Source: an uncultured Chloroflexia bacterium (GTDB lineage: Bacteria; Chloroflexota; Limnocylindria; Limnocylindrales; CSP1-4). Taken from it: 64,000 bases of DNA. The stretch is from contig CAVTQU010000008.1 in assembly GCA_963736895.1 (NCBI GenBank), positions 7,679 to 71,678 of the forward strand. The letters are read 5' to 3'. The notes under the pieces were generated by a model that was given only the letters and a program-made list of their open reading frames with translations, had not been told where the DNA came from and did no database searches. Positions 2,455 to 45,920 of the stretch are shown piece after piece. The position numbers were made by a program, and so were the translations under genes. Numbering within the stretch: the first letter of the stretch is position 1; each line of letters begins with the position of its first letter.

Positions 2455-4509
<2,055 letters not shown>

Positions 4510-4542
4510 GCAGCGCGGCGGGGTCTACCGACGCACGGGCAG

Positions 4543-5237
4543 TCAGCGGCCGTCGACTGTAGGAGCCGGCCGCCAGCTCCTCGGCGATCGCCCAGCCGAA
4601 CGCGATCATCGCCTGGCCGCGCGTCGCGTCGAGGTCACCGACGAGCGACACGATCTTGGCGCCGCCCGATCGCCTTCACCGGGCTCGCGTCGAGCACCGG
4701 CACGCACGGGGGCTTGCGACCCTTGACGGCGACGCGTGAACGCACGGTCGTCGAAGTGCGGTTCGAACGCCGAAGCGCTTCGCGAGCCGGCGACCCCACG
4801 CGCGGTCCTCGCCGTTCGGCGTGTAGCCCGGGCCGCGGCACGACGTTCGCGTAGCTCTGCGAGCAGCGCGTAGCAGCTCGGCTGCGCAGAGCCGGGTCGC
4901 GACGAGCACGTCCTCGTCGGGGAACGAGATCGCGGCCCGGCGCGACAGCTCGCCGGTCATCGACCTTGAGCGTCGCGGCCGGCGCTGCTTGCCCTTGCGC
5001 GCGACGCCGAGCCCCCACAGGATCGACGGCGTGCCGCCGATGCGTTCGAGCGAGCCGAGCATGACGCCCTGGAGCTCGCCGTCGAGCATCGCGACGACGG
5101 CGAGCGGGAATGCTTCGACCTGGCGGTCGAGCTCCTCGTCGGCCGATCGGCGAGCCCGTTGCCGCGAGCAGGAGTTGACCGAACTCATCGAGCTCTGCGG
5201 GCTTCAGCGAGACGGAATCACGGGATTCGACGTTCAT
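4543..5237 (-). CDS. Conserved hypothetical protein (frameshifted; end approximate)
   Basis: Coherent protein-like pieces MNVESRDSVSLKPAELDEFGQLL, GSLERIGGTPSILWGLG, RRAAISFPDEDVLV, GEDRAWGRRLAKRF, AMIAFGWAIAEEL. Confidence 0.55.
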
Positions 5238-5289
5238 CGCCAATAGATTGTGGCCGAAGTGACCCCTCGAGCGAAAGTCGGGCTCGGGT

Positions 5290-6282
5290 GTTCTGTCCCT
5301 CGTCGGTGTCCTCTTTGCCCTGTCGATCGCCGTGTTTGCGATCCGCGCGGTCCTACCGGCCGACCCGATTCGGGCGATGGTCGGTGGCTCGGCACCGGCT
5401 GCCGTTGTTGAACGAGTGCGCCACGAGCTGGGATACGACCAACCGCTGCCGGTCCAGTACGTCACGTTCCTGCAGAAGGCAGTGACCGGGGATTTTGGTA
5501 CGTCGCTGCGGACGCGCCGTCCGGTGCAGCCAGGACATAGCCCAGTTCGGGCCGGCCACGCTGGAGCTGGCCCTCTGGACGGGGCTTCTGGTGTTCGGAT
5601 TGGCACTGGTCCTGGGCACATGGGCCGCATCGGGACGAGCTGGCTCAGGACCTCTTCGGGTCGTCATGAACGCGCTGGCGTCGGCGCCGACGTTCGCCGT
5701 CGCCCTTTTCCTGCTGATAGTGCTGTACAAGCAGCTCGGTCTCTTCCCGCCAGGTGCGCGACTGAGTGATGGGGTCAACCCAGCTGGCCCGACCGGCCTG
5801 TACGTATTAGATGGCATCATCCAGCTCGATTTTCAGAAGAGCCTTGACGGCTTTGGCACCTGGTCATTCCGTGCATATGTTTGGCGATCGTGCCGGCAGT
5901 GGCAATAGCGCGCGTGCTGCACGGCTCGCTCGAATTCGGTGATGCGAGAAGACTTCGTCAGAACCGCGCGTTCAAAGGGACTGACAGGCCGTGGAGTCGT
6001 CCTTAATCACGGACTGCGTAACGCCTCTGGACCCGCACTGTCCATGGCCGGCCTTCAGTTCGGAGCCCTCCTGACGGGCGTCGTGATCATCGAACAGATG
6101 CTGTCGTGGCCAGGTCTCGGCAGGTACGCGAGCCAGGCGATCGAGGTTGCCGATTTCCCGGCGATCACAGCCGTGGTTCTAGTCCTCGGCGTGGCCTATG
6201 TTCTGGTCAACTTCATCGTTGACTTTCTCCAGCTGGGTGCAGATCCGCGACTTCGGGCCCGCGAGCTGGAGTGCAATCTTGA
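5290..6282 (+). CDS. Peptide/nickel ABC transporter permease DppB/OppB-like (5' truncated, frameshifted)
   Basis: LPADPIRAMVG...LGYDQPLPVQY...GDFGTS, PATLEL, EDFVRTARSKGL...HGLRNA, DPRLR. Confidence 0.85.
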
Positions 6283-6283
6283 A

Positions 6284-8258
6284 ATGAGCAGCAACGCCGA
6301 GACATCTCCAGCGGGCGAGCCCGTCGCTTCAGTCCGCGACCTGCATATCTCGCTCCGCCGCCAGGATGGCACGCTGCGGGCTCTGCGCGGCGTGTCCCTC
6401 GACATTCAGCCTGGCGAGATCGTCGCCCTCGTCGGCGAGTCCGGCTCAGGAAAAAGCGTCCTCTCGCAGGCCATCCTGGGTTTCCTGCCCGACGCGCCCG
6501 ACGTCACCGTTTCCGGCCAAGTCAGCGTCACCGGCGTCGACATGCTTACCGCTCCTGATTCGCAGCGACGTGCTGTCCGACGCGAGCTCTTGGGGGCAGT
6601 CTTTCAGGATCCGTTGATGTCTCTGAATCCGTCGATGCCCATTGGACGGCAGCTGACCGAACGGGGCATCGAGCACGACCTCGCGGTGCAGCACATGGTC
6701 GAGGCGGGCGTTCCTGCGGCCGAACGCAGGAGCGGCCAGTTCCCGCACGAGCTGTCGGGAGGTCTCAGGCAAAGGGTCATGATCGCCATGGCGCGCGGCG
6801 GATCAGGCGTCATCGAAAAGGACAAAGTTCGCGGTGACGCCTTTGGAGCGCCGCGCCTTATCGTGGCTGACGAGCCGACGACGGCTCTAGACACGAGCGT
6901 GCAGGCGCAGATCCTGCTGCTGTTCGATCGACTCCGACGGGACCATGGAACGGCCGTTTTGTTCGTCACCCACGACCTGGCCGTTGCGGCATCGATTGCC
7001 GACCGCGTGGCCGTGCTCTACGCCGGACTGATATGCGAATTGGGCACGACAGAAGATGTCCTCTCACACCCCCGACACCCCTACGCCGCGGCATTGCTCG
7101 CGGCGAGCCGCGAGCTGCGCGGAGATGGACGCACAACGGAGGTGCCCGATAAGCCGCTTGACCCCATTGCTCTACCGCCAGGCTGCGCCTTCGCGCCCCG
7201 CTGCGCCCGACGAACAGCCGAGTGCGAGATCGAGCCACCGCCAGGTCTTGCCTTTGTGGGTCCGGAGCCAGACCACGTAGCCGCGTGTCTGCATCCTCTG
7301 CCGACGACGGGCTCGGCGCCCGCGACAGAGATCCCAATGGCGAACAGACCGCAGGACCAAATCGTTGATGCGCCGCCTGCTGCTGGAGCTTCGTAACGTC
7401 ACCAAGACGTTCGTCAGCGGCGACAAGGCAATCAGGGCTGTCGATGACGTCAGCATTTCCGTGCCGGAGGGTGGCTGCGTCGCGCTCGTCGGCGAGAGCG
7501 GCAGCGGCAAGACGACCGTCCTTCGTATGGCCGCCGGGTTGGTAAAGGCTGAAAGTGGTGACGTGCGCTGGGCCGGCCAGCGGCCACAGCTCGTCTACCA
7601 GGACGCGACGGCTTCGTTGACGCCCTGGATGAGCATCGGCGACCAGATCGAGGAGCGGTTGTCCCTGCGCGGCGTGCCAAAAACGTCTCGCGCCGGGCTG
7701 ATTGCCGAATACCTGGACCGCGTGCATCTGGACCACAACGTGGCTCATGCCCGTCCGCGCGAGCTCTCGGGGGGGCAACGCCAGCGCGCGGCGATTGCGC
7801 GAGCCCTGAGCTCGGCGCCGCGTGTTCTCCTGTGCGACGAGCCGGTGAGTGCCCTGGACGCAACGCTCACCGTTCGGATCCTGCGTCTACTGAGCGAGAT
7901 TCGAGTCTCGCTTGGCGTCGCACTGCTCGTGGTCACCCACGACCTAGATGCTGCGCGGGCAATCGCTCAGGACATCTACGTGATGTATCACGGTCGCGTC
8001 GTCGAACACTCTCCAACCGAGGATGTCTTCGCCCGGCCACGCCACCCCTACACCCAGGGCCTATTGGCGGCCAGTCCGGGTGCCTCGGCCGGACACCTCG
8101 CGCCCACGCTGGAGGGCGAGCCGCCCGACCCGTTTGAGCATCTGGAGGGCTGCGCATTCGCGCCCCGCTGTCCAATCGCCGTGGCGCGCTGTGCTGTCGA
8201 GATCCCGGCGCTCCGCAAGCTGGATGAGAAGACCGAAGCCGCCTGCCACCTCGCCTGA
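6284..8258 (+). CDS. Peptide ABC transporter ATP-binding DppD/DppF (two ABC domains; either two genes 6284-7396 and 7365-8258 or one fused gene with an indel)
   Basis: Two Walker A motifs GESGSGKS/GESGSGKT, LSGGLRQR/LSGGQRQR, ADEPT/CDEPV, HPY and C-terminal GCAFAPRC motifs. Confidence 0.9.
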
Positions 8259-8260
8259 GC

Positions 8261-8638
8261 TCAGGTGGGAGTCGCGATTACCTGATCACCGTCCAGGATC
8301 ACTGCGCGAACTCCACTTCGTTCGGCGACGGCCTGCGTGTATGCGTCCAGATAGGACGCGCGATTGAGGTCCACCAGCTCGAGCGCGCGCAGTAGCACGA
8401 CGTCGTCCACGACAGCCACTGTGGGATGGCCGACTATCGCGCGCCCGATCTCGCGCAGCTGACTCCCCTCGATTCCTTCCGCGCGCCGCTCGAGCGTAGT
8501 CATGACCTCCGCGAAGGCAACGTCGGTCAGCAGCAGCACCTCGTCGCGCGACAAGAGATCCGTCGCTGCGGCTGCAAGCTGTGGAGGCTGGCCAAGCAGG
8601 TGCTGCAACAGCACTCGCGCGCCAAGAAAGGCCGGCAA
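8261..8638 (-). CDS. PIN-domain (VapC-like) toxin, degenerate active site
   Basis: PIN-like pattern AFAEV...LLRALEL...YLDAY...AVAERSG, directly downstream of an AbrB-type gene; N-terminal DTN motif reads GAR. Confidence 0.65.
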   Translation of the reverse strand: MPAFLGARVLLQHLLGQPPQLAAAATDLLSRDEVLLLTDVAFAEVMTTLERRAEGIEGSQLREIGRAIVGHPTVAVVDDVVLLRALELVDLNRASYLDAYTQAVAERSGVRAVILDGDQVIATPT

Positions 8639-8640
8639 AT

Positions 8641-9021
8641 CTAGGAGCGAGGGCTGACTGCGTCGACGCTGCGGCTGCGTGCCCGCTTGGCACTCGATGT
8701 CGAGGGCGAGATCGCTTTGGCGTGGTCGGAGGCTGCCTTCGCGCCTGACGATCGGACACCGGCACGCAGATCGGCCGCGCCCGAACGAGTTCGGTTCGCG
8801 CGGGCACGAGCCACCACGTCATCCCAAGACGTGCCCCGTGTCGGTGCCGGGCCGGCTATTAGTCCTGCCATGTCGAGCAGATTGGGAGTCCGCGCGATGA
8901 TGGCCCGTTCTCCTTCGACGCGAAAGACGACGTGGTCGCCGTCCTCGACACCGAGCGCCTCGCGGATGATCTTCGGGATGGTGATCTGACCCTTGCATGT
9001 CACGCGCGCGGCAGCTTCCAT
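8641..9021 (-). CDS. AbrB/MazE/SpoVT-family antitoxin
   Basis: ARVTCKGQITIPKIIREALGVEDGDHVVFRVEG; GGAGG SD upstream. Confidence 0.85.
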   Translation of the reverse strand: MEAAARVTCKGQITIPKIIREALGVEDGDHVVFRVEGERAIIARTPNLLDMAGLIAGPAPTRGTSWDDVVARARANRTRSGAADLRAGVRSSGAKAASDHAKAISPSTSSAKRARSRSVDAVSPRS

Positions 9022-9194: not shown

Positions 9195-9361
9195 TTATGG
9201 TCGCGGCTGGCTGCGCACAATTGCTACTGATTCACAGCAGACCTTCACGCGGATGAAACCCTCTTCGAAGCTGCGTGGAATGCTTCGGCACGCGAACCAG
9301 GTCCATAGTGGCCAGACGGGCGTCTTTCCGTGCGCCCTGGGCAGACTTTCTGGAGCCTCTC

Positions 9362-10876
9362 ATGATCCGCTTCCGTCCAACCTCACTCTCGCGTCCACCC
9401 CTTCTGTTCACCTTGGGAGCCGCCGCGGTACTCCTGGCAGCCGCCTGCACTGGGCCAACGGCCTCACCGTCCCCCTCAGTCGGCGCGCCGGGAACACTAC
9501 GGCCAACACAGGCGGCAACGACCGCGCCGTCGGTGGCCCTTGAAACAGCTACTGCGCTCGCAACGTCGACTCCTCTGCCCGAAGCATGCACGGTCGTGGC
9601 GACCGCGCTGCTGAACCCTCGTGGCATCAGCGTGGCGGCGGACGGAACGCTCTACATTGCCGAGGCCGGCGATGCTGGTACGGAACCCGACTTCCCGAAT
9701 GCGCCGCCGCCCAGCCCCGGTGCAAGCTCATCAACATCAAGTCCCGCGCCCAGTGCGGCGGGGTCGCCGGCCCCCGTAACGACCCACGGCGAAACAGGTC
9801 GCGTATCAAAGGTCACACCGGATGGCACGCAGTCGGTGGTCGTTGACGGCCTGACCTCGTACGGCTTCGGCACCGAGATCGTTGGGCCGGCCGACGTGGT
9901 GGTCGCCGACGACGGCACCCTTTATGTGTCGAACGGCGGACCTGGCCCCGCCCTCGGACAGATCATCCCGGCCGGCACCGCCGGCAAGGTCGTGTCGGTC
10001 GACAGCACGGGCACGGTGACTGTTGTTGCCGATCTCGGTGAGGCCGAGCGTTCCCAGAACCCCGACCCGAACGCCATTGACAGCGATTTGGGCGGCCTGG
10101 CGATCGGTACCGATGGCCTGCTCTACGTGGCAATTCCGGCGGCAACGACATCTACACAGTCGATCCGGCCACCGGGGAGATCAACTTGCTGGCCGTGATA
10201 CCGGGTCTGCCGTCGGCCGACGGCGCGCCGAATCCAGCTCGCGGGGGAGCCGCCGAAGTCGATCCCGTACCAACTGATGTCGAGGCGGATCCCAATGGGG
10301 GCGTCTTCGTCGGTCTCTTGCCCGGTGCAGCCCTCTGGGGAACGCCTGGTTCTGCCAAGGTGATCCACGTCGATCCCGATGGCACGATCACCGACGCCGC
10401 GACCGGTCTGAACACCGTGGTCGGCGTGGCCGTGGCTGGCAGATTCGTCTCTGTACGCCAGTCAGCTGTCCGCAAACCTGCTGGCGCAACCGCCGGAGCC
10501 GGGCAGCGTGGCCCTCGCCACTGACGCGGCACCGGAGGATGTGGTGATCGGCCTGCCAGGCCCGTATGGCATTGCGTTTGGCCCAGACGGCAGTCTGTAC
10601 GTCGCCATAAACGCCTCGGCCCCTTCGGGCACGCCGGCGCAGGGTCAGGTCCTGAAGTGCGAAGTCCCGGGTGTCGTCGTGCCTACACCGGCAGCCACGA
10701 CCCCGCCGGCCTCGCCCAGCGCTGCTGCCACGACTGAGCCTTCGCCGACCGAGCCACCCGCAACCACCGAGCCATCACCGACGGAGCCAACGCCGACTGC
10801 GACCGAAGAGCCCTCTGCCAGCCCGATCTCGTCAACCGAGGCCACGAGCTCGCCAGCCGCGTCGTCGACTCCGTAA
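9362..10876 (+). CDS. ScyD/ScyE-family beta-propeller lipoprotein with Pro/Thr-rich tail (two frameshifts)
   Basis: Lipobox LAAAC; LLNPRGISVAADGTLYIAEAG, DPVPTDVEADPNG, PYGIAFGPDGSLYVA across ORFs 9275..10198, 10186..10524, 10508..10876. Confidence 0.75.
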
Positions 10877-11334: not shown

Positions 11335-11382
11335 CGGACGAGCGACCTAGGTCAGGTACTCATCTTCTGGAGGGGCGCGGAA
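11335..11382. repeat. Imperfect direct repeat copy B, overlapping the Kelch gene stop codon
   Basis: cggacgagcgacctaggtcaggtactcatcttctggaggggcgcggaa; see copy A at 9146-9194. Confidence 0.85.
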
Positions 11383-12843
11383 GCGGCCCCGCGAGATCCA
11401 CTCGAAGAAGCGGAACGTCTCGCGCTTGTGCGAGTAGCACCAGCCGATGATCACAAGGATCACGAAGTTCCCGAGGGCTGCAGATCCGGCGACGATGTAG
11501 CCCAGCTGCTGCCCGATCTCGCCCTGGATCGATAGGGCCGGGATGGTCACCCCGAACAGCCCGAGCCTGAAGAATGGCAACCTTGGCGCGACGTCGGCGC
11601 GCAGGATGGTCGCGTCGAGCGTGTCGCCGCCGGACGAGCCACCGACGATGTAGACGAACTGGCCCAGAACGGCGGCCGTGGCCTCGGCTCGTGGAGCTGG
11701 AAGAGTGGTGGCATCGAGCTGATGCCAGCCAGTGATGGTGCCGTCGATCGGGCTCGGATTGGCCCACATATCGGTGTCCACAGCAGCGCCGTTGGCGTCA
11801 TAGCCGCCAACCACGTGAATCGCACCTGAGTTGGTGAACGTCGCGAAGTCGTAGCGCGGCTCGGGCAGTGCTGCGGCAGCCGACTGCTCGACCGAGACGC
11901 CCCAGCCAAACACTCGGCCGGTGTCCGTGTCGATCGCAGGCTGGCCGTGCGTATCGAACTGCAGGAAGAAGACCGAGTTGGCGGCGCCGCCAGGGCCCTG
12001 TCCGCCGACGATGTACACCGCGCCACCGGCGCCGATCGCGCCAGCAGATGCGCGCGCCTCAGGAAGCGGCAGCTCGGTGAGCTCGGTGAACGGCTTGAGG
12101 GTGGCAGCACCCGACGCCGTTGAAAGCACCGATTGGTATGTCTTGGCCGAGACCGCGTCGTCCGCCGTACGGCCTCCGAATACGTATAGGCCCGCGGTGG
12201 TGGATGTGCCACTCAAGTCGCTGAGTGGCTCGGGCAGCGTCACAGCGGCTGGCTGCCAACCGGTGAGGGCGCCGTTGGTGATGATTCCCTGGAAGACCGT
12301 GTCCGTGGGTGCCCCGGCAGCGTCTTTTCCGCCGATCACGAAGGGCAGGCCACCCAGGCTGACAACTGCCGCATCCGAGCGCGGCTCGGGCAGGGGCGGA
12401 GCTTCGGTCCACTGGGCGAGGTTGCCGTCGAATGTGGTCGTCGTGAGCACGCTGGCCGTCGTTCCCGCCGGAGTGCGGCCGCCGATGATGTAGATGTTCT
12501 CGCCGTTCGTAGTGGAGCCGGCGCCGGCCCTGCCGCCACCTGGAAGGGCGAGCTGCTCGGGACTCTGCTCGTAAGGGATGACCGCGCCAGCCGGCGCCGG
12601 GCAGGGCAGCGTCTTGTTGTTTGCCGGGCACAGGTTGATGGGGCTGATCGCGTTGTAGCCCAGGTCGACCGTCGGCGCGACGGTGAAGTAATAACCGCGG
12701 TCGGGCACGTAGCCCAGCAGGAAGATGATCAGCAGGAACCACCACGTGGCCTTGATCGTTGCCCAGCCCCAGCCGTCGGCATCGAGGAGACCGAACACGG
12801 CACGGCGTTTGACAGCGCCGGGCGGCAGCGCGTACTCAGCCAT
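11347..12843 (-). CDS. Membrane-anchored Kelch-repeat beta-propeller protein
   Basis: Six Kelch-type repeats (IYIIGG, PFVIGG, LYVFGG, VYIVGG, IHVVGG, VYIVGG with LPEPR spacers) between N- and C-terminal hydrophobic helices; ATG abuts the upstream stop. Confidence 0.8.
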   Translation of the reverse strand: MAEYALPPGAVKRRAVFGLLDADGWGWATIKATWWFLLIIFLLGYVPDRGYYFTVAPTVDLGYNAISPINLCPANNKTLPCPAPAGAVIPYEQSPEQLALPGGGRAGAGSTTNGENIYIIGGRTPAGTTASVLTTTTFDGNLAQWTEAPPLPEPRSDAAVVSLGGLPFVIGGKDAAGAPTDTVFQGIITNGALTGWQPAAVTLPEPLSDLSGTSTTAGLYVFGGRTADDAVSAKTYQSVLSTASGAATLKPFTELTELPLPEARASAGAIGAGGAVYIVGGQGPGGAANSVFFLQFDTHGQPAIDTDTGRVFGWGVSVEQSAAAALPEPRYDFATFTNSGAIHVVGGYDANGAAVDTDMWANPSPIDGTITGWHQLDATTLPAPRAEATAAVLGQFVYIVGGSSGGDTLDATILRADVAPRLPFFRLGLFGVTIPALSIQGEIGQQLGYIVAGSAALGNFVILVIIGWCYSHKRETFRFFEWISRGRFRAPPEDEYLT

Positions 12844-14125
12844 CTACGGCAACGCCGATGGTGCAGGAGACGCTGCAGCCGATGGTGCGGCAGCCGATGG
12901 AGCCGGCGACGTCGCGCCCGATGCCGGCGGCGAAGCAGCCCCGGATGCGGTTGGACCGCCTTGCTGGAGGACGATATCGACGTGCATTGTCGTGTAGTGG
13001 CCCGGCACCGTGCAGGCGAACTGCGGGCTGGCGGCCGCAAGCTGATTGACGGTCAGCGGGACGTCCTCCGTGGAGCCCGCGGGAAGGTCGACGCCGGGCA
13101 GTTCGTTCTCTTGAGGAGCAGCGGCCAGTTCGTCGCTCGATCCAAGGTGGAAGTTGTGGGCCAGCGTCGACGGGTTGGTTACGTGGAACTCGACGGTCTC
13201 GCCCTGGAGAACGGCAACTGCCGTAAGCGGCTGCTGGGTGGTTGGATCGACCCACTGCAGATTGGCGGTCGCCTCGATATTGATGACGCGCGGATTCTCG
13301 ACGGTGCCGGGGCTGGTGATGGGAGCCGGCGTGGCAACAGGTCCACTGGCGGCGGGTGCCCGCCAGCACGCTGGGACAGGAGTTGAGCCCGGCGGAGGCG
13401 TGAAGTTCGGGTCGCGCCAACCCTCGACGTCGACATTGGGCGCCTGCGTCGCGCCGCCTTCTGGATGCGGCGGCACGTAGGTGAAGTCGGTGTCCGACGA
13501 GGCCGTGATCCACGCGATCAGCTCCGCCACCTGGCGATAGTTGAGCGGCCCGGCTGGGTTGAGCCACGCGGGCATGACGCTGTTCGGATCGCCGCACACG
13601 TAGCGACCGCCGACTGAAAGGACATTGTTCAGGTAGTTCGGATTGAGGTGGCCGGTGCCGGGCAGACCCTGGGGAGTAAGCGCGTTGAACAGCTTCATCT
13701 GGTCGTTGAGCGGCGGTCCGACTCCGCCTTCGCCGTTGTTTCCATGGCAGCGCGCGCAGTTGGCAAGGAACAGCGCGTAGCCGCGCGACACATCGGTCAC
13801 GTACTGCTGGTCGGCCTCCTTCTGGAGTCGGCCCTCGATGCCGAGCACCGGCAGGCCGATGTCGTACAGCCAGTAGATGGGGATGAACAGGATGAAGATC
13901 AGCACGGCCAGGAACGCGACCATCCGGCCGTTGCTGCTCTGGCGAACGACCTGCGCGGCACGCTCCTCGGTCAGGCCGACGCTGTGCGTCTGCTCGCCGG
14001 ACGAGAAGCGCTCTGGAAACGATTCTGTCGCAGGTTCGGGTACGGGACGATTCGCGCGGGGCGACGGCGCCTTCCTGCTCTTCCGGACGCGGCGTCAGCT
14101 CGCGACCGGTTCGATCCTCTGTCAC
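12844..14125 (-). CDS. Membrane-anchored cytochrome c - cupredoxin fusion (one indel near 5' end)
   Basis: TM helix, CARCH heme motif with distal VMPAW Met, C-terminal HNFH...CTVPGHYTTM type-1 copper ligands; GTG at 14125 overlaps the Rieske stop. Confidence 0.85.
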
Positions 14126-14790
14126 ACGCAGCCCGTTGGTGATCGGGCGGGAATAAGGCCGGGCTGGCCGAGAGCCACCGGGAGCGGGCCAAGCGTCAGG
14201 CGCGACGTGTCGACCGTCAGGACGCCGGCTTCAATCGTGTGCGCAAATCGGTCGAGGCTGCGCGGCGCGGGACCGAGCTCCTGGACCTTCGTGCCCAAGC
14301 GGTCGTAACGCGACCCGTGGCACGGGCACTCGAACCAGTAGTTGGTCGTGCAGAAGTTGGGCTTGCAGCCCAGGTGCGGGCAGCGCTGATAGAGCGTCCG
14401 CACGTTGGTGTTCGCGCCGGATCCGTCGGCGCTCGTGCCGTCCACAAACCCGCGCGCGGGATCGATGAGCTGGACGTAGGTGCGGGCAACCGAGAAGTAG
14501 GACGGAGCCCCGTCGGAGAGCGTCACGCCCTGCACCGCGGGGTTGCCCGAAACAACGGCCATGTCACCCAGGGTGAGCGCGCCGCCAAAGCCGCGCGACA
14601 GGTTGGGCCACAGGAAGCCGAGGATGCCGCCGGTCAGCTCCAGCAGCCACAGCGAAACGCCGAAGCCGATCGAGCGGCGAATCAGCGTTCGTCGCGACAT
14701 GCCCGCAGGACGGCCCTGGCGCATCTCGCGCAGGACGTCCCTGGTCAGCGTCCGCGGCTCTTGCCAGCGAGCCAGCTTCCAATTACCCAT
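14122..14790 (-). CDS. Rieske [2Fe-2S] subunit of Rieske/cytochrome b complex
   Basis: Tat-like SRRTLIR plus TM helix; CPHLGC and CPCHGSRY boxes; GPAPRSLDRF. Confidence 0.95.
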   Translation of the reverse strand: MGNWKLARWQEPRTLTRDVLREMRQGRPAGMSRRTLIRRSIGFGVSLWLLELTGGILGFLWPNLSRGFGGALTLGDMAVVSGNPAVQGVTLSDGAPSYFSVARTYVQLIDPARGFVDGTSADGSGANTNVRTLYQRCPHLGCKPNFCTTNYWFECPCHGSRYDRLGTKVQELGPAPRSLDRFAHTIEAGVLTVDTSRLTLGPLPVALGQPGLIPARSPTGCV

Positions 14791-15444
14791 TTAGAGCGCG
14801 AACCACAGTCCGTTCTCCCACGGCACGGTGAAGGCGTAGCCGGGGCCACGGAAGAAGGCGCCAAGGAAGGTGATCACCAGTCCGGCGGCGCAGAACATAG
14901 TGAACAGGACTACGCCCAGCTTGCGATCGCGCGGATGAGACGAGCCACCATCGCCGCGTGGCCCGCGGTCGATGTACGGGATCACCATGATCGCCGCGAA
15001 GATCGTGACGATCGGGATGGCACCGGCGACCGTCGGGTGGAAGTAGGCCAGCAGCTCCTGGATGCCAACCAGGTACCACGGCGCCTTGGCCACGGCCGGG
15101 GTCACGTTCGGATTGGCCAGCTCCTCGAGTGGCGCGTTGACGAACACGCCCATCAGCAGCAGGAAGACGCTCATCACCGCCGCCGCGAAGAACTCGATCG
15201 ACAGAAGGTGCGGCCAGGTCATGACCGTGTCGTCCGGTTCCTTCTGAACGCGAACCACGGCGTCCTGCTTGACCAGCGCCAGCAGCCGGTATGGCTTGGC
15301 GGCCATCGGTACGCGCTGCTTGTCGATCTCGGTCGTTCGCCGCTCCGGCGGCGCGGCTGGAAGCGCTGTCCGGCGCGACGGCGCGGACGGCTCCTCCTTG
15401 GTAGTAGTCGGTAGTCGCTGCTCGGGCTTCTTCTCGTCAGTCAT
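14791..15444 (-). CDS. Cytochrome b6 subunit IV / cytochrome b C-terminal subunit (PetD-like)
   Basis: WPHLL, APLEELANPNVTP, KAPWY (PEWY position), three TM helices, PYIDR. Confidence 0.85.
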   Translation of the reverse strand: MTDEKKPEQRLPTTTKEEPSAPSRRTALPAAPPERRTTEIDKQRVPMAAKPYRLLALVKQDAVVRVQKEPDDTVMTWPHLLSIEFFAAAVMSVFLLLMGVFVNAPLEELANPNVTPAVAKAPWYLVGIQELLAYFHPTVAGAIPIVTIFAAIMVIPYIDRGPRGDGGSSHPRDRKLGVVLFTMFCAAGLVITFLGAFFRGPGYAFTVPWENGLWFAL

Positions 15445-15455
15445 CGATCACTCAC

Positions 15456-16184
15456 CTACAGCGGGCCGGAGATGCCGCCGTCCTTCCGGATCCTCCAGAA
15501 GTGGACGGCGAGGAACACAGCGACAGTCAGCGGTAAGAGGATCACGTGGAGCACGTAGAAGCGTAAGAGGGTGTTCTGGCTGACCTCGATGCCGCCGAAG
15601 ATCAGCAGCTGCGACGGCCGCGACAGCAGCGGCACGTACGAGGCGATGTTGTTGCCGATGGTGATCGCCCAGAACGCGATCTGGTCCCACGGCAGCAGGT
15701 AGCCGGTGAACGACAGCGCGATCGTGAAGAAGAGCAGCAGCGTGCCGATCACCCAGTTGAACTCGCGCGGCGGCTTGTAGGCCCCGTGGTAGAAGACCCG
15801 CATCATGTGCAGGAAGACGAAGAAGACCATCAGGTGGGCGCCCCAGCGATGGATGTTTCGCGTGAGCAGCCCGAATGGAACTTCGGCCTGGATGCGCAGG
15901 ATGTCGTCGTAGGCGGACGTCGACGATGGGACGTAGAAGAACATCAGGAAGACGCCCGTCACGGTCAGCACCAGGAAGAAGAAGAACGACAGGCCGCCGA
16001 GGCAGAACGTGTAGGCGAACTTGACCGCGTGCTGCCGCACCCGCACCGGGTGGATGTGCAGGAACACGTTGTTCATGACCGCGTAGGCACGCGATCGCTC
16101 GTCGGCGGGGTATGGCTGCCTGAAAAGCGACCGGAAAAGCGCGCTGCGCCGCAGTGCGGTGTCCACGCGCTCGAGGAAGCTCAA
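15456..16184 (-). CDS. Cytochrome b6-type N-terminal cytochrome b (PetB/QcrB-like)
   Basis: FCLGG (heme ci Cys), RNIHRWGAH...[34 protein letters not shown]-x14-H. Confidence 0.95.
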
Positions 16185-18034
16185 CGAACAAATCCTCCAG
16201 CCGTCTCGCGGTTACCGATGCCGAGCAGCCCAAGCTGGGTGTCGCGGTAGCTCTCCTTGTAGAGGCGACCGTCGCTGCTTATCTCCTGGAGCTCGAACCG
16301 CTCCATGGTAATGGCGTCATACGGGCATCGTTTCACGCACAGTGCGCAACGGATGCAGCGCTCCTCGTCGAGGACCATCGCGGCGCCGTCCGACCAGCCG
16401 TAGGCATCGACCAGCTCGGGCAGCGGCCCCTCCGATTTCATCTGGTTGATGTCGATCATGTGGATCACGCCTTCGGGGCACACGTCGGCGCACGCACCGC
16501 AGAGCACGCAGCGGAAACCGTCGAACCAGATGTTGTAGTTGCACATCAGACAGCGCGTGCTTTCGGTGACGGCCTGGCTGGTGGTGTAGCCCTTCTCCAC
16601 GGGAGTGGTGAAGTTGACATGCGGGTCAGTGGACGGCATCCGTGCCTGCACCTGGATCATGGGCACGTGGACGCGCGGCAGGACGTCGTAGAAATCGGGC
16701 ATCTCGTGGCGCCACGAGCTGACGATGCGGACGTTGGCGTCGACATCGACCTCGCGCCGGCCGGACAGGTAGCGGTCAACGGCATATGCGCACTTCTTGC
16801 CGTGGCCCGCGGCCTCGATCAGGGTCGTCGGTCCCGTGACGAAGTCGCCGCATGCGAACACGCCGCGTACGTTGGTGGCGTAGGTGCCCGGGTCGACGCG
16901 GACACGGCCGCGGTTGATCTCGAAGCTCGACTCGACGGGCAGGAAGGTGTTGTCGGCGGCCTGGCTGACAGCCGGGATGACCGTGTCGGCCTTGATCTCG
17001 AACTCGCTGCCCGGGATGGGCACCGGTGCACGGCGGCCGGTGGCATCGGGCTCGCCAAGGCGGTTGCGGATGAACTTCACGGCCGCGACGTTGCCGTCGT
17101 CGTCGCCGATGATCTCGACCGGGCTGACCAGGAACTCCATGTGAACGCCTTCGCGCTCGGTCTCGCCCAGCTCCTCCTCGTCCACGACCAGCTCTGATCG
17201 GGTGCGGCGGTAGGCGATGGTCACGTTCTCGGCGCCGTAGCGCAGGCTGGTGCGCGAGCAGTCCATCGCGGTGTAGCCGCCGCCGATGACCACCACGTCG
17301 TTGCCGACCGTCAGCGGCTCGCCCAGGTTGGCGATCTTCATGTAGTCGACGCCGTACTGGATGCCCTTCAGGTCGCCCCCGGGCACGTCCAGCGGAACGG
17401 CGTCCATCGCTCCGGCGCAGATGGCGATGGCGTCGTAGTCCTCCATCAGCTGCTCGAACGTGATGTCACGCCCGATGCGCACGCCATACCGGAAACGAAC
17501 GCCCAGCCGCTCCACCAGCTTGAGATCCATCTCGATGGCCTCGCGCGGAAGGCGGAAGGCGGGGACGCCGATGAGCATCGTGCCGCCGCCATAGGGCAGC
17601 TCGTCGAAGACCGTGACCTGGTGTCCGGCAGTGGCCAGCTCCCGCGCCACGGCGACGCCAGCAGGGCCGGCGCCCACCACGGCCACGGTCGTGTCGCGGG
17701 GCGTGATCTGTGGCATGTCGTCGGGGATGCCGCTCGCCTGGTGCCACTCCACGAGGAAACGCTTCATGGCGCGGATCGCCAGCGGCCGATCGATGTCGCC
17801 GCGGCGGCAGGCGCGCTCACAGGGCGCGGAACAGACGTAGGCACACATCGCGGCGACCGGATTCGGCTCGCGCGACAGGATGTAGCCCTCTTCGAATTGG
17901 CCTTCGGCCGCAAGGTTCAGGTAACCGCGGCAGTTGGTCCCGACTGGGCACGCTTCCTGGCACTCAATATTGCACTGGAGCCAGGAGGCGTCGACAGGCT
18001 GAACCAGGAATTCCTGGTTGGGGTCGATTGCCAA
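16181..18034 (-). CDS. NAD(P)H-dependent FAD/Fe-S oxidoreductase, GltD/NfnB/DsrL-like, with C-terminal 2x[4Fe-4S] ferredoxin
   Basis: CQEACP...[28 protein letters not shown]...[43 protein letters not shown]. Confidence 0.9.
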
Positions 18035-18222
18035 GTGGTCTGACCTCTCAGAAGCGCAGGCTGGGCACGATTTTGGGGCAATTTCAGCGCGATTTGGAGC
18101 TTGCGAGGCGCGTTTTTACGGCGCTTTTCGCGAGCACGATCGTATCACCGCAAGCGTCAAGGCCGCAGGCCTGTGGAGGTTGCTGCCGCGTTCTCAGATG
18201 CCACTCCATGTAACGCTAGGTC

Positions 18223-19692
18223 GTGATGCGGGCTCAGTCACGAGCAGATAGGCCGTCGCCCACGCTCAGCCCCATCGAGGAAGTCGGCTTCTGGGTCGAT
18301 TTCGGGTCGGAAACTCGACTTACCGTTGCGTCCATTGGAATTCGAGAAGAGGCGACCCTCGACGGTCAAGGATTCGAGCCTGGCCCGTGGTACCAGCCGT
18401 ATGGACGAGGGTCACGTAGACGCGCCATGGGAGCGGACGTAGGCTCGCCTCCCATGTCAAGCGCCGATTTCGAGGTGCCGGACGCTCGACCGAGCGCTGC
18501 GCCGGCAGTCAACACGCCCGTGGCGGCGAGCATCGGTGGGCCGTGCGCGCCGGCTCGTGCGGAGGTCGATTCGCGCTGTGCCGCTGCCGATCGCCTTCTC
18601 GCAGCCGCCCAGACGCATCAGGTAACGCTGCGCGAGGCGCGACGTCAGCTTTCCGACGCGACGCGCCAGCGCGAGGCCGACTCGTACCTGCGCGACAACA
18701 GACGCCAGCGTGACGAAAAGCTCGCCGCGCAGGGCGACTACCACGTTGCCGTCGCAAGAGCCAGCGACGAAGCCGATCTGCGTGACGCGGCGGCGACCTG
18801 GATGCACAGGCTCGACCAGTTGAACAGGCAGGCCCGCGACGCGAACAGACGCGCCGAGGGCTTGGCCCAGCGAGTCTCCGAGATCGAGCGGACCCTGCCT
18901 GGCCTCGAGCTGGCCGCCGACGCGGCGCGCATCTCGGCCGAGACAGCGGAGGAAGCGTGCCTGACAGCGCGCCGGACCCTCGCGGCATGCGAGGAACAGA
19001 CGAGCCCACGGCCCGTCGCGGCAACCAACGGATCGCCGGCAACTGCGGCCGCGTACACCGACACGGTCAGCGCGACGCCGACGAGCGATATCGAGGCACG
19101 AGCCCGCGCCTGGGCCGAAGCGGACGGTGTGAAGGCGGCGGCTCACGCCCTCATGAGCGGCGACCGTCAGGCCTTGCTCGGTCTTGCGTTGCGTGCCGCC
19201 GAGGAAACTGGCATCGAGGCCGGGCGACTTCAACTCCTGCTGATCGAGCTTCGCGAACAGATAAGAACGCGCGCGTTGGAGGACTCGGCGCTGGAGCTGC
19301 CGTCCGACCACCCGTTCTGGAGCCAGTTCTCGCCCGCGGCAGTCGGTGAGATCGTCCGCAGCCTGGCATCGATGGGCTATCGCTTCGACGGTGCAGGCGG
19401 CTGGGCCGACCACCACGCCCCGCAGACTCGGGACCTCGCGCTTGCCCTGTCGTACTGCGGCTACGACCCGCGCGGGCTGCGGCGTCCTGCCGGCCAGGCG
19501 GCGATCGATGCCCTGTGGCAGGGTGCGTCCGTACGGACGGAGGACTACCTCGTGTCGCACGCTCCTGATCTTTCGCTCGAGCAGCTGGTCGAGCTGCTGG
19601 GACCCAGCTCGAGTCGCCTATCGGAGCTGTGGGACATCTGGGGACGCTTGCGCCCCCTGTTGATGAAAGCCGGAAACCCGACTTCCTTGTAG
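18223..19692 (+). CDS. Hypothetical protein with long coiled-coil region (true start possibly ATG 18427)
   Basis: 489-aa open frame with protein-like composition, helical Ala/Arg/Glu-rich middle and globular C-terminus. Confidence 0.65.
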   Translation: MMRAQSRADRPSPTLSPIEEVGFWVDFGSETRLTVASIGIREEATLDGQGFEPGPWYQPYGRGSRRRAMGADVGSPPMSSADFEVPDARPSAAPAVNTPVAASIGGPCAPARAEVDSRCAAADRLLAAAQTHQVTLREARRQLSDATRQREADSYLRDNRRQRDEKLAAQGDYHVAVARASDEADLRDAAATWMHRLDQLNRQARDANRRAEGLAQRVSEIERTLPGLELAADAARISAETAEEACLTARRTLAACEEQTSPRPVAATNGSPATAAAYTDTVSATPTSDIEARARAWAEADGVKAAAHALMSGDRQALLGLALRAAEETGIEAGRLQLLLIELREQIRTRALEDSALELPSDHPFWSQFSPAAVGEIVRSLASMGYRFDGAGGWADHHAPQTRDLALALSYCGYDPRGLRRPAGQAAIDALWQGASVRTEDYLVSHAPDLSLEQLVELLGPSSSRLSELWDIWGRLRPLLMKAGNPTSL

Positions 19693-19778: not shown

Positions 19779-20534
19779 CTAGCCGACTTCTAGGTAGCGG
19801 AACACCTCAGCCGCGCCGACACCGATCTCCTTGCCGGCCTCGGCCGACCAACCGCGCAGCATCCCCTCGAGCTCCTCGGGCTTGCGCAGCTGGCTGACGT
19901 GCTGCTGGAGCGCCTCGATCTTGGTATCGATCGTGTCGGTCACATCCACGAAGGTGTTGGGCACCTCGCAAAAGAAGAGGAAGAGCTGCTTCACCGTGTG
20001 GGGTTCGAGGCCCTCGTCGATTACCAGGTGAGGAAACGCCATCGCGTTCCTCGACGCCGGGTAGACCGCGTCGACAGCCGCCATGGCGGCCTGGCGATGG
20101 TCGACATGCTGGATGGAGCCGCGTGAATGGACGATCACGCTCGGGTCCATGCACAGGACTGCATCGGGCTTGAACTGACGGATGATCCGAACGAGCTGCT
20201 CGCGGAGCGCCAGATCGTTCTCCAACGCCCCGTCCGGTCGATGCAGGAAGTCGACGCCCTCGTAGCCGACCACACGGGCCGCTCCCCGTTGCTCATCCTC
20301 ACGGCGGCGGGCCAGCTCGAGCGGATCCGTTCGGGCGTCGTCGGCACCGGCGTCGCCGCTGGTGCAGCAGACCATGCGACCGACCGTGCCCTCTCGTATC
20401 CACTTGGCCATCGTGCCGGCGACGCCGAAATCGGCGTCATCGGGGTGGGCGACGATCACCAGCGCTCGGTCTGGCCTGTCGGTGTAGGGAGTCTTCTTTT
20501 CGGTTGTCTCGGTGGTCGCGTCTTCGTCGGTCAT
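19779..20534 (-). CDS. PIG-L/LmbE-family deacetylase
   Basis: VIVAHPDDADFG, TSGDAG, RRREDEQ, HVDHR, KIEALQQHVSQ. Confidence 0.9.
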   Translation of the reverse strand: MTDEDATTETTEKKTPYTDRPDRALVIVAHPDDADFGVAGTMAKWIREGTVGRMVCCTSGDAGADDARTDPLELARRREDEQRGAARVVGYEGVDFLHRPDGALENDLALREQLVRIIRQFKPDAVLCMDPSVIVHSRGSIQHVDHRQAAMAAVDAVYPASRNAMAFPHLVIDEGLEPHTVKQLFLFFCEVPNTFVDVTDTIDTKIEALQQHVSQLRKPEELEGMLRGWSAEAGKEIGVGAAEVFRYLEVG

Positions 20535-37195: not shown

Positions 37196-38652
37196 TTAGA
37201 CCTGCTTGACGGCCGCCACGAGCTGGGTCAGGCCCTCGCGCGCGTCGGCGAAGAGCATTCCCGTCTTTGGATTGAGGTACAGCTCGTTATCGATGCCCGC
37301 GTAACCCGGCCGCATCGAGCGCTTCATCACGATGATGCTGCGCGCGTGATCCACGTTGAGGATGGGCATCCCGTAGATCGGGCTCTGCGGGTTGGTGCGC
37401 GCCGCTGGGTTGGTCACGTCGTTCGCGCCGACCACGAGCGCTACATCGGCTCTGTCGAACTCGGGGTTGATCTCGTCCATCTCCTTGAGCTGCGGGTAGG
37501 GCACGTTGGCCTCGGCCAGCAGCACGTTCATGTGGCCGGGCATTCGTCCGGCGACGGGATGGATTGCGTACGAGACCTCGACACCGCGGCCCTCCAGCAG
37601 CTCGGCCAGCTCGCGGACGGCGTGCTGCGCCTGGGCAACGGCAAGGCCGTAGCCGGGCACGATGATCACTTTCTGGGCATAGGCGAGCTGGATGGCCGCG
37701 TCGTCGAGGCTGACCTCGCGGACGTTGCCGCCCTCGCCGTCGGGACCGGCTGCGCCTGCGGTGGCGTCTCCGCCTCCGAAGCCACCGACCATGATGCTGG
37801 CGATCGACCGATTCATGGCGTCGGCCATGAGCTTGGTCAGGATCGCGCCCGAGGCTCCGACCAGGGCGCCGGCGATGATCAGCACCGGGTTGCCGATGAC
37901 GAAGCCGGCCATCGCCGCGGCCGTGCCGGTGAACGAGTTGAGCAGCGAGATGACGACGGGCATGTCGGCGCCGCCGATCGGCAGCACCATCGTGATGCCG
38001 AACACAGCGCGGCAACGACGATCAAGCCGAGGACGATGATCGCGATCTCCGAGGTCAGGGTGACAACCCCGGCGGCGCCGAGGACGAGCAGGACGAAACC
38101 GGCCACGGTGCCCAGGGCGAGGACGACAGTCAGCAGACGCGACCCGGGGAAGAAGATGGGCTTGCCGGGGACGATGCCCTGCAGCTTGCCCGAGGCGATC
38201 AGCGAACCGCTGAACGTAACCGAGCCAATCACGGCGCCGAGGACCACGAAGATCGCGGTCGAGACTTCCATCTCACCAAGCTGGACGCCGCGGATGTAGT
38301 CGTCGATGGCCACCAGCGCGGCTGCGCCGCCGCCGACCGCGTTGAACAGCGAGACGAGCTGGGGCATGGCCGTCATCTGGACCTTGCGGGCGAGGTATAG
38401 GCCGATGCCACCGCCGATGATGAAGCCGCCAACGATGATGATCAGCGGCATCGGGCTGTTGCCGAGGCCGCCCGGGCGAAGGATCAGCCATACGAGCGTG
38501 GCCAGGACTGCCAGCGTCATGCCACCAGCCGACAGGCGGTTGCCGCCGCGCGCCGTAGCCGGCGAGTTCATCTGGTGCAGGCCAAGCACGAAGGCGGCCG
38601 CTCCCGCCAGCCAGGCCAGGAAAACGAAGGTGTAGATCCACTCCTGGCTCAT
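37196..38652 (-). CDS. pntB: NAD(P) transhydrogenase subunit beta (frameshifted)
   Basis: MTAMPQLVSLFNAVGG, GSVTFSGS, IGGADMPVVISLLNS, PGYGLAVAQAQH, HPVAGRMPGHMNVLLAEA, GANDVTNPAA. Confidence 0.96.
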
Positions 38653-44834: not shown

Positions 44835-45918
44835 ATGAGCCCAACGAACAAGACCGCAGCGAAGTCCACCGCAAAACCAGTCGAAAGGCCGGCGGCAGGC
44901 GGCACCGTCCACGACCCCGGACCCGAAATCTCGGGCGACCGCGGGCCAAGGCGCTGGATGCGGCCGCGCAACCCGATCGACCTACCCGGTGGTGGCGCGA
45001 CGGTACGGCTCGGAACTGCGTCCTGGACCGACCCGACGATGATCGGCGGGCAACCGTCTTCTACCCACCGGCGCCGACAGCGGCCGAGGAGCGCCTCCAG
45101 TACTACGCGAGCGCAGTTCCCGCTGGTCGAGGTCGACTCGACCTACTACGCGCTGCCCTTCCCGCGCATGGCCGAGCTGTGGCGCGATCGAACTCCACCC
45201 GATTTCGTCTTCGACGTGAAGGCCCACGCTCTCGATGACCGGCCAGCCGACCGAGGTCAAGCGGCTGCCGAAGTTCAGCTGCGCGAGGAGCTGCCGGCGG
45301 AGATCGGCGGACAAGTCACGGATCTACGCGCGCGATCTACCGGCCGAGCTGCGTGACGCGGTTTGGCAGATCGTTCCTGGACGGCCTGGCACCGCTGCGC
45401 GAGTCTGGACAGCTGGGCTCGATCCTGCTGCAGTACCCGCGCTGGTTCTTCCCGATCAGCGAGAGTCGCGACGAGATCCTGGAGGCGCAAGCGAGCGGCT
45501 GGGCGACACGCTGTTCGCGGTCGAGCTGCGCAACGCGTCGTGGTTCAACGAGAAGAACGTGGAGCGGACGCTGCGCTTCCTGACCGACAACGAGCTGCCG
45601 TTCGTGATGGTCGACGAGCCGCAGGGGTACAAGAGCAGCGTGCCGCCGCTCGTGGCGGTTACGTCACCCGAGCCTGGCGATCATGCGCTTCCACGGCCGA
45701 CGGACCGAGACGTGGGAGGCGAAGAACATCACACCCGCCGAACGGTTTCCGCTACCTGTACGACCGCGACGAGCTGTCACGATTGGGCGCCGCGCTTGCG
45801 CGACGCGGGCAAGCAGACGCGCGACCTGCACGTGCTCATGAACAACTGCTACGCCAACTACGGCTCGACGAACGCACGCGAGCTGGCCCGGATCCTGGCC
45901 GACCTGAAACCGGACTGA
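44835..45918 (+). CDS. DUF72-domain protein (frameshifted)
   Basis: RLGTASWTD, VEVDSTYYALP, FVFDVKA, LLQYPRWF, AVELRN, MVDEPQ, HVLMNN. Confidence 0.88.
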
Positions 45919-45920
45919 TC

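Follow-up and report, generated by a model that had tools for sequence, protein, structure and literature searches.

The six genes described here lie on the minus strand of a stretch of 64,000 nucleotides (nt) from contig CAVTQU010000008.1 (GCA_963736895.1, forward-strand positions 7,679-71,678), hereafter the window. They encode, in order, a flavoprotein, a cytochrome b6-type cytochrome b, subunit IV, a Rieske protein, a cytochrome c-cupredoxin fusion and a Kelch membrane protein. We propose, with moderate confidence, that they make up a single operon, that it encodes the lineage's sole Rieske/cytochrome b complex, and that this complex oxidizes quinol and sends its electrons along a high- and a low-potential branch. 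Judging from the genes, the products probably assemble into one complex. As far as we have searched, the cytochrome c-cupredoxin fusion and the Kelch protein are new as fixed members of such an operon. The host belongs to the Chloroflexota, order Limnocylindrales, according to the taxonomy of its relatives' records, and thus to a non-anammox lineage, as a first-pass annotation made from the sequence had supposed. The features are as follows:

16181-18034, minus strand: iron-sulfur (FeS) flavoprotein; open reading frame (ORF) of 617 amino acids (aa); Pfam, NCBIfam and PDB matches
15456-16184, minus strand: cytochrome b6-type cytochrome b; 242-aa ORF with a TTG start; Pfam and PDB matches
14791-15444, minus strand: subunit IV (PetD-like); 217-aa ORF; Pfam match and alignment
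14122-14790, minus strand: Rieske [2Fe-2S] protein; 222-aa ORF; Pfam and PDB matches
12844-14125, minus strand: cytochrome c-cupredoxin; frame-broken here, with an intact ORF of 359 aa at 12844-13923
11347-12843, minus strand: Kelch membrane protein; 498-aa ORF; Pfam Kelch families and a predicted model
18035-18222, no strand assigned: presumed promoter region, the 188 nt that separate the start of the flavoprotein gene from a divergently transcribed gene at 18223-19692

Six genes and their predicted products

The ORF list places the six genes in the order that the first-pass annotation had given, and all five junctions lie where it had put them. The flavoprotein and b6 genes overlap by 4 nt (16181/16184), b6 and subunit IV are separated by an 11-nt gap (15445-15455), and the junctions of subunit IV with the Rieske gene (14791/14790) and of the cytochrome c-cupredoxin gene with the Kelch gene (12844/12843) are abutting. 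At the remaining junction, the Rieske stop codon TGA shares bases with a GTG at 14125 (GTGA). Pfam and NCBIfam confirm five of the proposed identities: flavoprotein, cytochrome b6, subunit IV, Rieske and Kelch. For the fifth gene, the same databases recover the expected c-type heme domain, while the single frame claimed from 14125 to 12844 is not present in the window. The cupredoxin assignment found no support in Pfam and was confirmed by a profile match to auracyanin A and a fold match to azurin. We presume that 18035-18222 holds the operon promoter. A scan returned 0 promoter-like sites, using models that do not cover the promoters of the host phylum; a terminator scan returned 3 terminator-like sites against 3.5 expected, all within genes.

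The flavoprotein has an N-terminal domain for two [4Fe-4S] clusters (Fer4_20), a domain that binds flavin adenine dinucleotide (FAD) and NAD(P), the nicotinamide adenine dinucleotides, and a C-terminal ferredoxin domain for two [4Fe-4S] clusters. Pfam recognizes Pyr_redox_2 (8.7e-31), Fer4_20 (7.6e-18) and two Fer4 domains (3e-11), and four Cys-cluster motifs are readable in the sequence. The NCBIfam match to PRK12771 reaches 429 bits, under the cut-off of 516. Solved structures that match are NfnABC (9bov/9bp5, 8.7e-107), NfnB (4ylf, 9.2e-84) and GltD (2vdc, 8.5e-62), and residues 502-581 match FwdF (5t5i). The succession of a Fer4_20 domain with two [4Fe-4S] clusters and an FAD/NADPH domain makes the protein a member of the NfnB/GltD group; it differs from both in its additional C-terminal 2x[4Fe-4S] domain, which is part of neither. 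Because no hydrophobic segment is visible in the sequence, the protein is predicted to be peripheral and cytoplasmic. Its identity within Limnocylindrales is 78-95%.

The membrane core is of the b6 type. Cytochrome b6 is a four-helix cytochrome b (Pfam Cytochrome_B, 9.3e-48) whose best solved match is the spinach/chloroplast cytochrome b6 (6rqf_I, 5.2e-49). Its residue 59 aligns with residue 33 of 6rqf_I, it has about 26 extra N-terminal residues compared with chloroplast b6, and the positions of the four heme His (bL, bH) and of the heme-cn Cys are conserved. The CLGG motif, which aligns with the Cys35 region of b6, recurs in 72/72 relatives, and a covalent heme cn is predicted at its Cys. 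Subunit IV (Pfam Cytochrom_B_C, 3e-6) is extended at its N terminus by about 45 cytoplasmic residues. At its quinol oxidation (Qo) site, the alignment sets APWY opposite the PEWY of the C. reinhardtii subunit IV. APWY, the defining motif of the APWY clade discussed below, is found in 81/81 relatives. The Rieske protein (Pfam Rieske, 6.3e-8) has the boxes CPHLGC and CPCHGSRY, which include the disulfide Cys pair, both the Ser and the Tyr hydrogen-bond donors, and an N-terminal anchor with an RR motif; the residues after CxCH are GSR in 83/83 relatives. The His pairs, the CxGG Cys, the separate Qo-bearing subunit IV and the Rieske cluster boxes together are those of the b6-type class.

The closest solved Rieske proteins are 9rk4 (Kuste4569, 3.6e-11) and 9rk3 (Kustd1480, 5.2e-11), compared with 1.1e-7 for PetC of b6f. 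In the part of the source available to us, these two are described as the Rieske proteins of two flavoprotein-bearing anammox complexes, with measured potentials of +303/+335 mV (PMC12954380).

The cytochrome c protein is membrane-anchored and monoheme, with a C-terminal type-1 copper domain and a low-complexity tail rich in Pro, Ala and Ser. C56/C59/H60, M117, H256, C304 and M313 do not vary among 27 cytochrome c-cupredoxin sequences, every one of which also has the loop His. In 79/79 ORFs of relatives, there is one CxxCH per ORF, as well as one C-x(2-4)-H-x(2-5)-M motif. A profile search against PDB gives auracyanin A as the top match (2aan, 3.1e-11). The AlphaFold model has a mean predicted local distance difference test (pLDDT) score of 82.5, and Foldseek matches it to azurin (E 1.2e-7, TM(target) 0.65). 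By sequence profile and modeled fold, then, the C terminus is an auracyanin/azurin-like type-1 copper domain, with copper binding predicted.

Some relatives have longer cytochrome c-cupredoxin genes, of about 1.5 kb versus about 1.2 kb (loci L082, L086, L088, L090, L093, L095 and L096). The three ORFs that were parsed (L086, L090 and L095) encode about 550 aa, and the extra length may represent either another cupredoxin-like domain or a long insertion. The heme c domain is the only Pfam match in the long protein of L086. Separately, an apparent cytochrome c-cupredoxin-Kelch fusion of 880-911 aa at seven loci was rejected, since a stop codon separates the two genes.

In the window, the cytochrome c-cupredoxin gene is interrupted. 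The frame of the GTG at 14125 differs from that of the heme and copper domains, which is closed upstream by an in-frame stop at 14097-14095 and first offers a start at ATG 13923. The intact piece (13923-12844, 359 aa) contains the transmembrane helix, the CxxCH and the copper ligands. The gene occupies a single frame in 17/17 relatives, starting on or beside the Rieske stop, and in all 17 its product has a conserved cytoplasmic N-terminal extension of about 50-65 aa. Deleting any one base within 14036-14055 yields a single frame of 426 aa. Reads from four soil runs gave only short contigs of relatives that match the stretch, and one of these, at low depth, has one base missing at 14043. The assembly (3.0 Mb, 11 contigs) is 59% complete by markers, and it splits other genes as well: pntB, for the transhydrogenase beta subunit (PF02233; window 37214-38616, minus strand), is read as two pieces that overlap but differ in frame (C8:44892-45686 and 45680-46294), and the COX1 gene of contig 4 is broken up by two internal TGA codons. 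These splits and the low completeness suggest that the assembly is indel-rich. An assembly indel is the likeliest cause of the frame break, given the single frame in 17/17 relatives, the contig with the missing base and the other split genes; a real mutation is the less likely cause.

The Kelch protein comprises a basic N terminus, a first transmembrane helix, a conserved segment with a Cys pair, a six-bladed propeller, a second transmembrane helix and a basic C terminus. Matches to Pfam Kelch families range from 4.7e-20 to 1e-7. The predicted model (pLDDT 84, predicted template modeling score 0.74) has helices at 25-55 and 442-471 and the propeller at about 100-427. Its closest folds in Foldseek are the six-bladed protein-binding Kelch domains of Keap1, LZTR1 and KLHDC (E about 1e-19, TM(target) about 0.8). 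Conservation is highest in the two transmembrane regions and the Cys-pair segment after the first of them, and the alignment has no invariant His or other metal-ligand column. Basic residues face the cytoplasm under the positive-inside rule. Both termini are basic, which predicts an extracytoplasmic propeller. We set aside a catalytic role of the galactose-oxidase, NosZ or dehydrogenase kind, as the alignment lacks an invariant metal-ligand column and the fold neighbors bind proteins. The most plausible role for the protein is that of a structural subunit or a platform for docking. A complex prediction of the Kelch protein with the cytochrome c-cupredoxin protein scored 0.00 ("no answer") and weighs neither way.

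Conservation and respiratory context

We examined relatives in four families of the class: f1, which includes the window; its sister family f2, also in Limnocylindrales; and f3 and f4, the other two families. Synteny was scored in two partly overlapping sets. Set A holds loci fetched by genome with tblastn. Set B holds the best 80 of 525 stretches that encode a Kelch relative, of which those that extend 5.4 kb or more beyond the Kelch gene on its upstream side were testable. Gene presence was surveyed in 401 Chloroflexota genomes of at least 80% completeness (f1, n = 23; f2, n = 4; other families, n = 373). Five unpublished genomes (G004, G078, G207, G242 and G302) were counted in tallies only.

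We find that all six genes are syntenic in related genomes. The order is kept in 17/17 loci of set A, where an 18th locus ends inside b6, and in 53/53 testable loci of set B. The tight junctions are also widespread. The stop and start codons of the flavoprotein and b6 genes overlap by 4 nt in 50/71 loci, the Rieske and cytochrome c genes overlap in 55/76, and the spacing from cytochrome c to Kelch is at most 30 nt in 53/58.

The genes also come and go together. In the survey, full-length Kelch orthologs with the transmembrane regions occur only in f1 (14/23, plus one cut by a contig end) and f2 (4/4); the best Kelch match among the 373 genomes of other families reaches 4.8e-22 and covers the repeats only. 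Flavoprotein orthologs of at least 78% identity are present in 16/23 f1 and 4/4 f2 genomes. A whole Kelch gene accompanies the flavoprotein in 14 of these 16 f1 genomes, and a contig ends at that place in the other 2. Such a Kelch ortholog is missing from the 7 f1 genomes that lack the flavoprotein (6 from genus g6 and 1 from g7), and the 5 of these 7 in which b6 was searched for gave no real match (best E 2.4e-6). This joint absence in g6 and g7 indicates that the six genes are gained and lost as a set. The genomes of f2, where all 4 surveyed keep the flavoprotein and Kelch genes, measure 1.0-1.4 Mb.

Beyond Limnocylindrales, the operon has a different 3' end. All 6 loci fetched from f3 and f4 encode the flavoprotein, b6, subunit IV and Rieske protein, followed by a membrane-anchored cytochrome c of 273-373 aa. 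Pfam finds two heme c domains in one of the two such proteins scanned and one in the other. These loci have no cupredoxin domain or Kelch gene at this place. Among 14 loci of other Chloroflexota families with a flavoprotein about 40% identical, a short cytochrome b adjoins it in 1 (L123), and the remaining 13 have no b6 nearby. Locus L123 (G387:C6:57000-73000, 6184-8860, minus strand), from another Chloroflexota class, encodes a 614-aa flavoprotein with the same domain order and then an overlapping short cytochrome b with CLGG (283-aa ORF), with neither subunit IV nor Rieske protein. The f3/f4 operons and the L123 unit thus suggest that the link between flavoprotein and cytochrome b is older and wider than Limnocylindrales. 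The cupredoxin fusion, the N-terminal tail of the cytochrome c protein and the Kelch gene are, by their distribution, innovations of Limnocylindrales.

In f3 and f4 (L111-L116 and L129), a conserved membrane protein of about 195 aa is encoded 3' of cytochrome c, at the position of the Kelch gene (for example, L115:2835-3416). It has no Pfam family.

To place the complex in respiration, we checked five genomes: that of the window, one more from f1, two from f2 and one from f3. Cytochrome b (PF00033) has exactly one match per genome, and in 5/5 it belongs to this operon. ActD of Alternative Complex III has no match in 5/5 genomes, and COX1 of an aa3-type oxidase is present in 5/5. The operon is therefore the only recognizable route from quinol to the oxidase. 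As nothing else that we found can feed the oxidase, the complex is expected to oxidize quinol.

One oxidase operon was examined, in f2 (L134; G028:C3:15000-27000, 3138-8504); it encodes a subunit II with CuA, subunit I and subunit III. Here, subunit IV is fused to a cupredoxin-like domain (328 aa), and a divergent gene encodes a 424-aa sulfocyanin (SoxE)-like protein. Copper domains thus appear, from sequence, on both complex III and complex IV in Limnocylindrales.

Direction of electron flow

We propose the following mechanism. Quinol would be oxidized at the Qo site of the b6-type core, with its split cytochrome b, heme cn, APWY motif and Rieske protein. The high-potential electron would pass from the Rieske cluster to heme c, then to the tethered type-1 copper domain, and on to the aa3-type oxidase; the copper domain would take over the job of the second heme c domain of the sister orders. 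The low-potential electron would cross the membrane through bL, bH and cn. From cn, it could re-reduce quinone, or pass through the four [4Fe-4S] clusters to the FAD of the flavoprotein and on to NADP+. The Kelch protein would be an additional, order-specific subunit, held by two transmembrane anchors, with its protein-binding propeller on the outer side.

An anammox-type reduction of NADP+ is favored by the features of the Rieske protein, by the APWY site and by the architecture in common with the anammox complexes. For the anammox complexes, NADP+ reduction driven by quinol oxidation has been proposed, in the part of that paper available to us (PMC12954380). NADP+ reduction as the direction of flow at the flavoprotein is, in our assessment, possible at somewhat below an even chance. 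The full scheme, in which the sole complex III bifurcates quinol electrons, with one going to oxygen via heme c and copper and the other to NADP+, is more doubtful still.

Several observations count against this scheme. The complex is known here from its genes. Because the genomes are kin, the synteny counts overstate the independent support. This assembly also has a frame break in the cytochrome c gene. Complex I (NuoD) and the PntB transhydrogenase are each present in 5/5 genomes, so an extra source of NADPH is not obviously needed. A true pair of menB and menA was found in 1/5 genomes, and the futalosine pathway had no match, so an energetic argument from a low-potential quinone is not established. 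The high potential of the Rieske protein is predicted from two residues. Finally, the L123 unit of flavoprotein and cytochrome b, with neither Rieske protein nor subunit IV, fits a role in oxidizing NAD(P)H. The presence of complex I and PntAB and this stand-alone unit are among the reasons why our estimate for NADP+ reduction is low.

The main rival reverses the flow at the flavoprotein. NAD(P)H would be oxidized at FAD, the electrons would travel via the FeS clusters to cn/bH, and quinone would be reduced on the N-side, which would make the flavoprotein a non-pumping NAD(P)H:quinone reductase mounted on complex III. We consider this unlikely, although it has several points in its favor. In L123, a flavoprotein and a short cytochrome b with CLGG stand alone. 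GltD and NfnB, the solved relatives of the flavoprotein, take their electrons from NADPH. The input from FNR to b6f that has been proposed in cyclic electron flow would be a comparable arrangement. In the sections of Dibrova 2017 available to us, a cytoplasmic oxidoreductase anchored by cytochrome b is taken as the ancestral form, and FNR bound to b6f is adduced (PMC5600118). However, complex I occurs in 5/5 genomes, so a non-pumping bypass would cost energy, and the authors of the anammox study, in the part available, rejected the NAD(P)H-oxidizing direction for this reason (PMC12954380). The high-potential Rieske features and the APWY site would also be left unexplained.

A second alternative questions whether the flavoprotein, the Kelch protein or both are stable subunits. 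They might instead be co-transcribed helpers or mere neighbors: the propeller could be an assembly or copper-insertion factor for the cytochrome c-cupredoxin protein, and the flavoprotein a soluble, co-regulated NADPH-dependent reductase. Their status as subunits is read from gene content, beta-propeller assembly factors such as Ycf48 serve photosynthetic complexes, and the Kelch protein has no cofactor motif. A role in maturation would also fit the fact that the Kelch gene arose with the cupredoxin fusion. Yet the junctions overlap or nearly abut in most loci (the 50/71 and 53/58 given above), the genes are retained in genomes of 1.0-1.4 Mb, and conservation of the Kelch protein peaks in its transmembrane regions and the segment after the first, which points to lasting membrane contact. 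The anammox flavoproteins are, moreover, reported in the available parts of two sources to co-migrate with their complexes (PMC12954380, PMC5600118). We regard this second alternative as improbable. For the Kelch protein on its own, the case for a stable subunit is evenly balanced.

The third alternative is that the whole complex runs backward: a high-potential donor on the outer side would deliver electrons to copper, heme c and the Rieske cluster, and these, with low-potential electrons from NAD(P)H, would reduce quinone at Qo. APWY has been tied to a reverse mode, with a p-cresol cluster of Geobacter as the example (Kao and Hunte 2014, PMC4122944), and it is invariant in the relatives of the window operon. 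Against this, the complex is the sole cytochrome b complex in aerobes with an aa3 oxidase, so quinol oxidation requires it. Nor does the operon contain a gene for a dedicated high-potential donor enzyme, and the Kelch propeller has no cofactor motif. Reverse operation is thus very improbable.

Known systems, significance and neighboring genes

The first-pass annotation had likened the operon to Rieske/cytochrome b complexes of anammox bacteria, and this likeness stands: the closest solved Rieske proteins are Kuste4569 and Kustd1480, and the flavoprotein matches the same structural templates. Kuste4569-4574 and Kustd1480-1485 of Kuenenia stuttgartiensis share with the window an operon-encoded NAD(P)-binding FeS flavoprotein with NfnABC (9bp5) and FwdF (5t5i) as templates. 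As described in the part of the anammox paper available, these two structures were used to place four FeS clusters (PMC12954380). Also shared are a b6-like four-helix cytochrome b with subunit IV and the heme cn Cys, and the Ser beside the Rieske cluster, to which Kuste4569 adds the Tyr. The outer side differs. The anammox complexes have hexa- or octaheme cytochromes and a HAO-like protein there, whereas the window operon has one heme c, type-1 copper and a Kelch protein; with one CxxCH and no multiheme gene, it departs from the anammox type in this respect. The gene order differs too, with the flavoprotein first in the window operon. Anammox bacteria are anaerobes with an anammoxosome and have three such complexes each; the window's host is a Chloroflexota aerobe with an aa3 oxidase, and no other cytochrome b complex was found in the genomes checked.

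A further likeness, by motif and gene content, is to subfamily G and the APWY clade, which share a short cytochrome b with CxGG, the APWY Qo motif and an adjoining large, Cys-rich NAD(P)-binding protein. According to the sections available of Dibrova 2017 (PMC5600118), the short cytochromes b of subfamily G are accompanied "in many other cases" by NAD(P)-binding FeS oxidoreductases, and Ktedonobacteria are named in the subfamily. The APWY clade includes Chloroflexi and Planctomycetes, with none of its enzymes characterized as of 2014, according to the sections available of Kao and Hunte 2014 (PMC4122944). A flavoprotein link outside anammox is thus not a new idea; it is in print. The passages available from these two papers make no mention of a cupredoxin fusion or a Kelch protein (PMC5600118, PMC4122944).

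The operon had been put forward as a candidate undescribed respiratory complex. Synteny, tight junctions and joint loss support the view that the genes act as one unit, and "undescribed" holds only in part. The co-occurrence of flavoprotein and short cytochrome b is published, as is the APWY clade. The cupredoxin fusion and the Kelch protein are the part that endures, since our literature search, which covered main texts rather than supplements, returned no description of either the fusion or an operon-encoded Kelch protein. The respiratory terms searched for are likewise absent from the main texts of two Limnocylindria genome papers.

The cytochrome b6f complex shares the best solved cytochrome b match, a separate subunit IV, a blue-copper acceptor (plastocyanin) and, as reported, a bound FNR. 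Cytochrome f is absent from the window complex, however, and APWY takes the place of PEWY at Qo. Plastocyanin is soluble, whereas the copper domain here is fused to the heme c subunit, and in place of FNR there is an NfnB/GltD-like flavoprotein with four FeS clusters. No PetG, PetL, PetM or PetN gene was seen in the window operon.

Blue-copper links between quinol oxidizers and oxidases are known elsewhere: auracyanin accompanies Alternative Complex III in Chloroflexus, and the sulfocyanin SoxE is part of the SoxM supercomplex in Sulfolobus. In the actinobacterial bcc-aa3 supercomplex, a diheme cytochrome cc links quinol oxidation to the oxidase. The window's copper domain is most like auracyanin A. 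What sets it apart from all three systems is its covalent link to the heme c subunit within a Rieske/b6 complex, an arrangement for which our search returned no description.

The Ext clusters of Geobacter were also compared. They share a Rieske protein and a small membrane partner. Membership was rejected, as ExtQ (NF040970) scores 58.6 against a cut-off of 150 and the cluster content differs: Ext clusters have multiheme cytochromes, a porin and a rhodanese, with no flavoprotein, cupredoxin or Kelch protein. The b6 protein does reach 292.9 bits against ExtP (NF040969; cut-off 290), a match that reflects general b6 likeness.

Rieske/cytochrome b complexes that bear NAD(P) oxidoreductases have been discussed for over a decade, and their function is without experimental proof; the most thoroughly studied ones occur in anammox bacteria, which grow slowly. 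Here, such a complex is the sole cytochrome b complex in 5/5 genomes of aerobes, including lake bacteria of 1.0-1.4 Mb; there is no redundancy, and the flavoprotein is tied to oxygen respiration. In such a system, it can be asked more cleanly whether NADPH is drawn from the low-potential branch of a Q-cycle enzyme or feeds it. With a tethered copper domain in place of a second heme c domain, and a two-helix Kelch propeller protein that appeared at the same time, the operon illustrates how complex III can be remodeled on its exit side. If the proposed mechanism is right, quinol-driven formation of NADPH would be an ordinary mode of aerobic respiration rather than an anammox curiosity. Likewise, if it is a subunit, the Kelch propeller would represent a new class of respiratory-complex subunit, one that organizes either the exit via copper or a supercomplex that includes the oxidase. 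Limnocylindrales are widespread in soil and freshwater, and a practical limit is that they are known almost only from metagenome bins.

Three genes flank the operon in the window. The divergent gene at 18223-19692 (plus strand) encodes a 489-aa protein with no Pfam family. It holds the same position in f1, at 30-66% identity, and was not found beside the operon in f2. Adjoining it at 19779-20534 (minus strand) is a PIG-L family deacetylase gene, which lies near the operon in f3 too. On the other side, 9275-10876 (plus strand) contains three ORFs in different frames (9275-10198, 10186-10524 and 10508-10876) that look like one frameshift-broken gene. The two pieces scanned have no Pfam family. 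The predicted product has repeated "DGTLYV/DGSLYVA"-like stretches and a tail rich in Pro, Thr and Ser, and the gene is convergent with the Kelch gene, whose end it faces.

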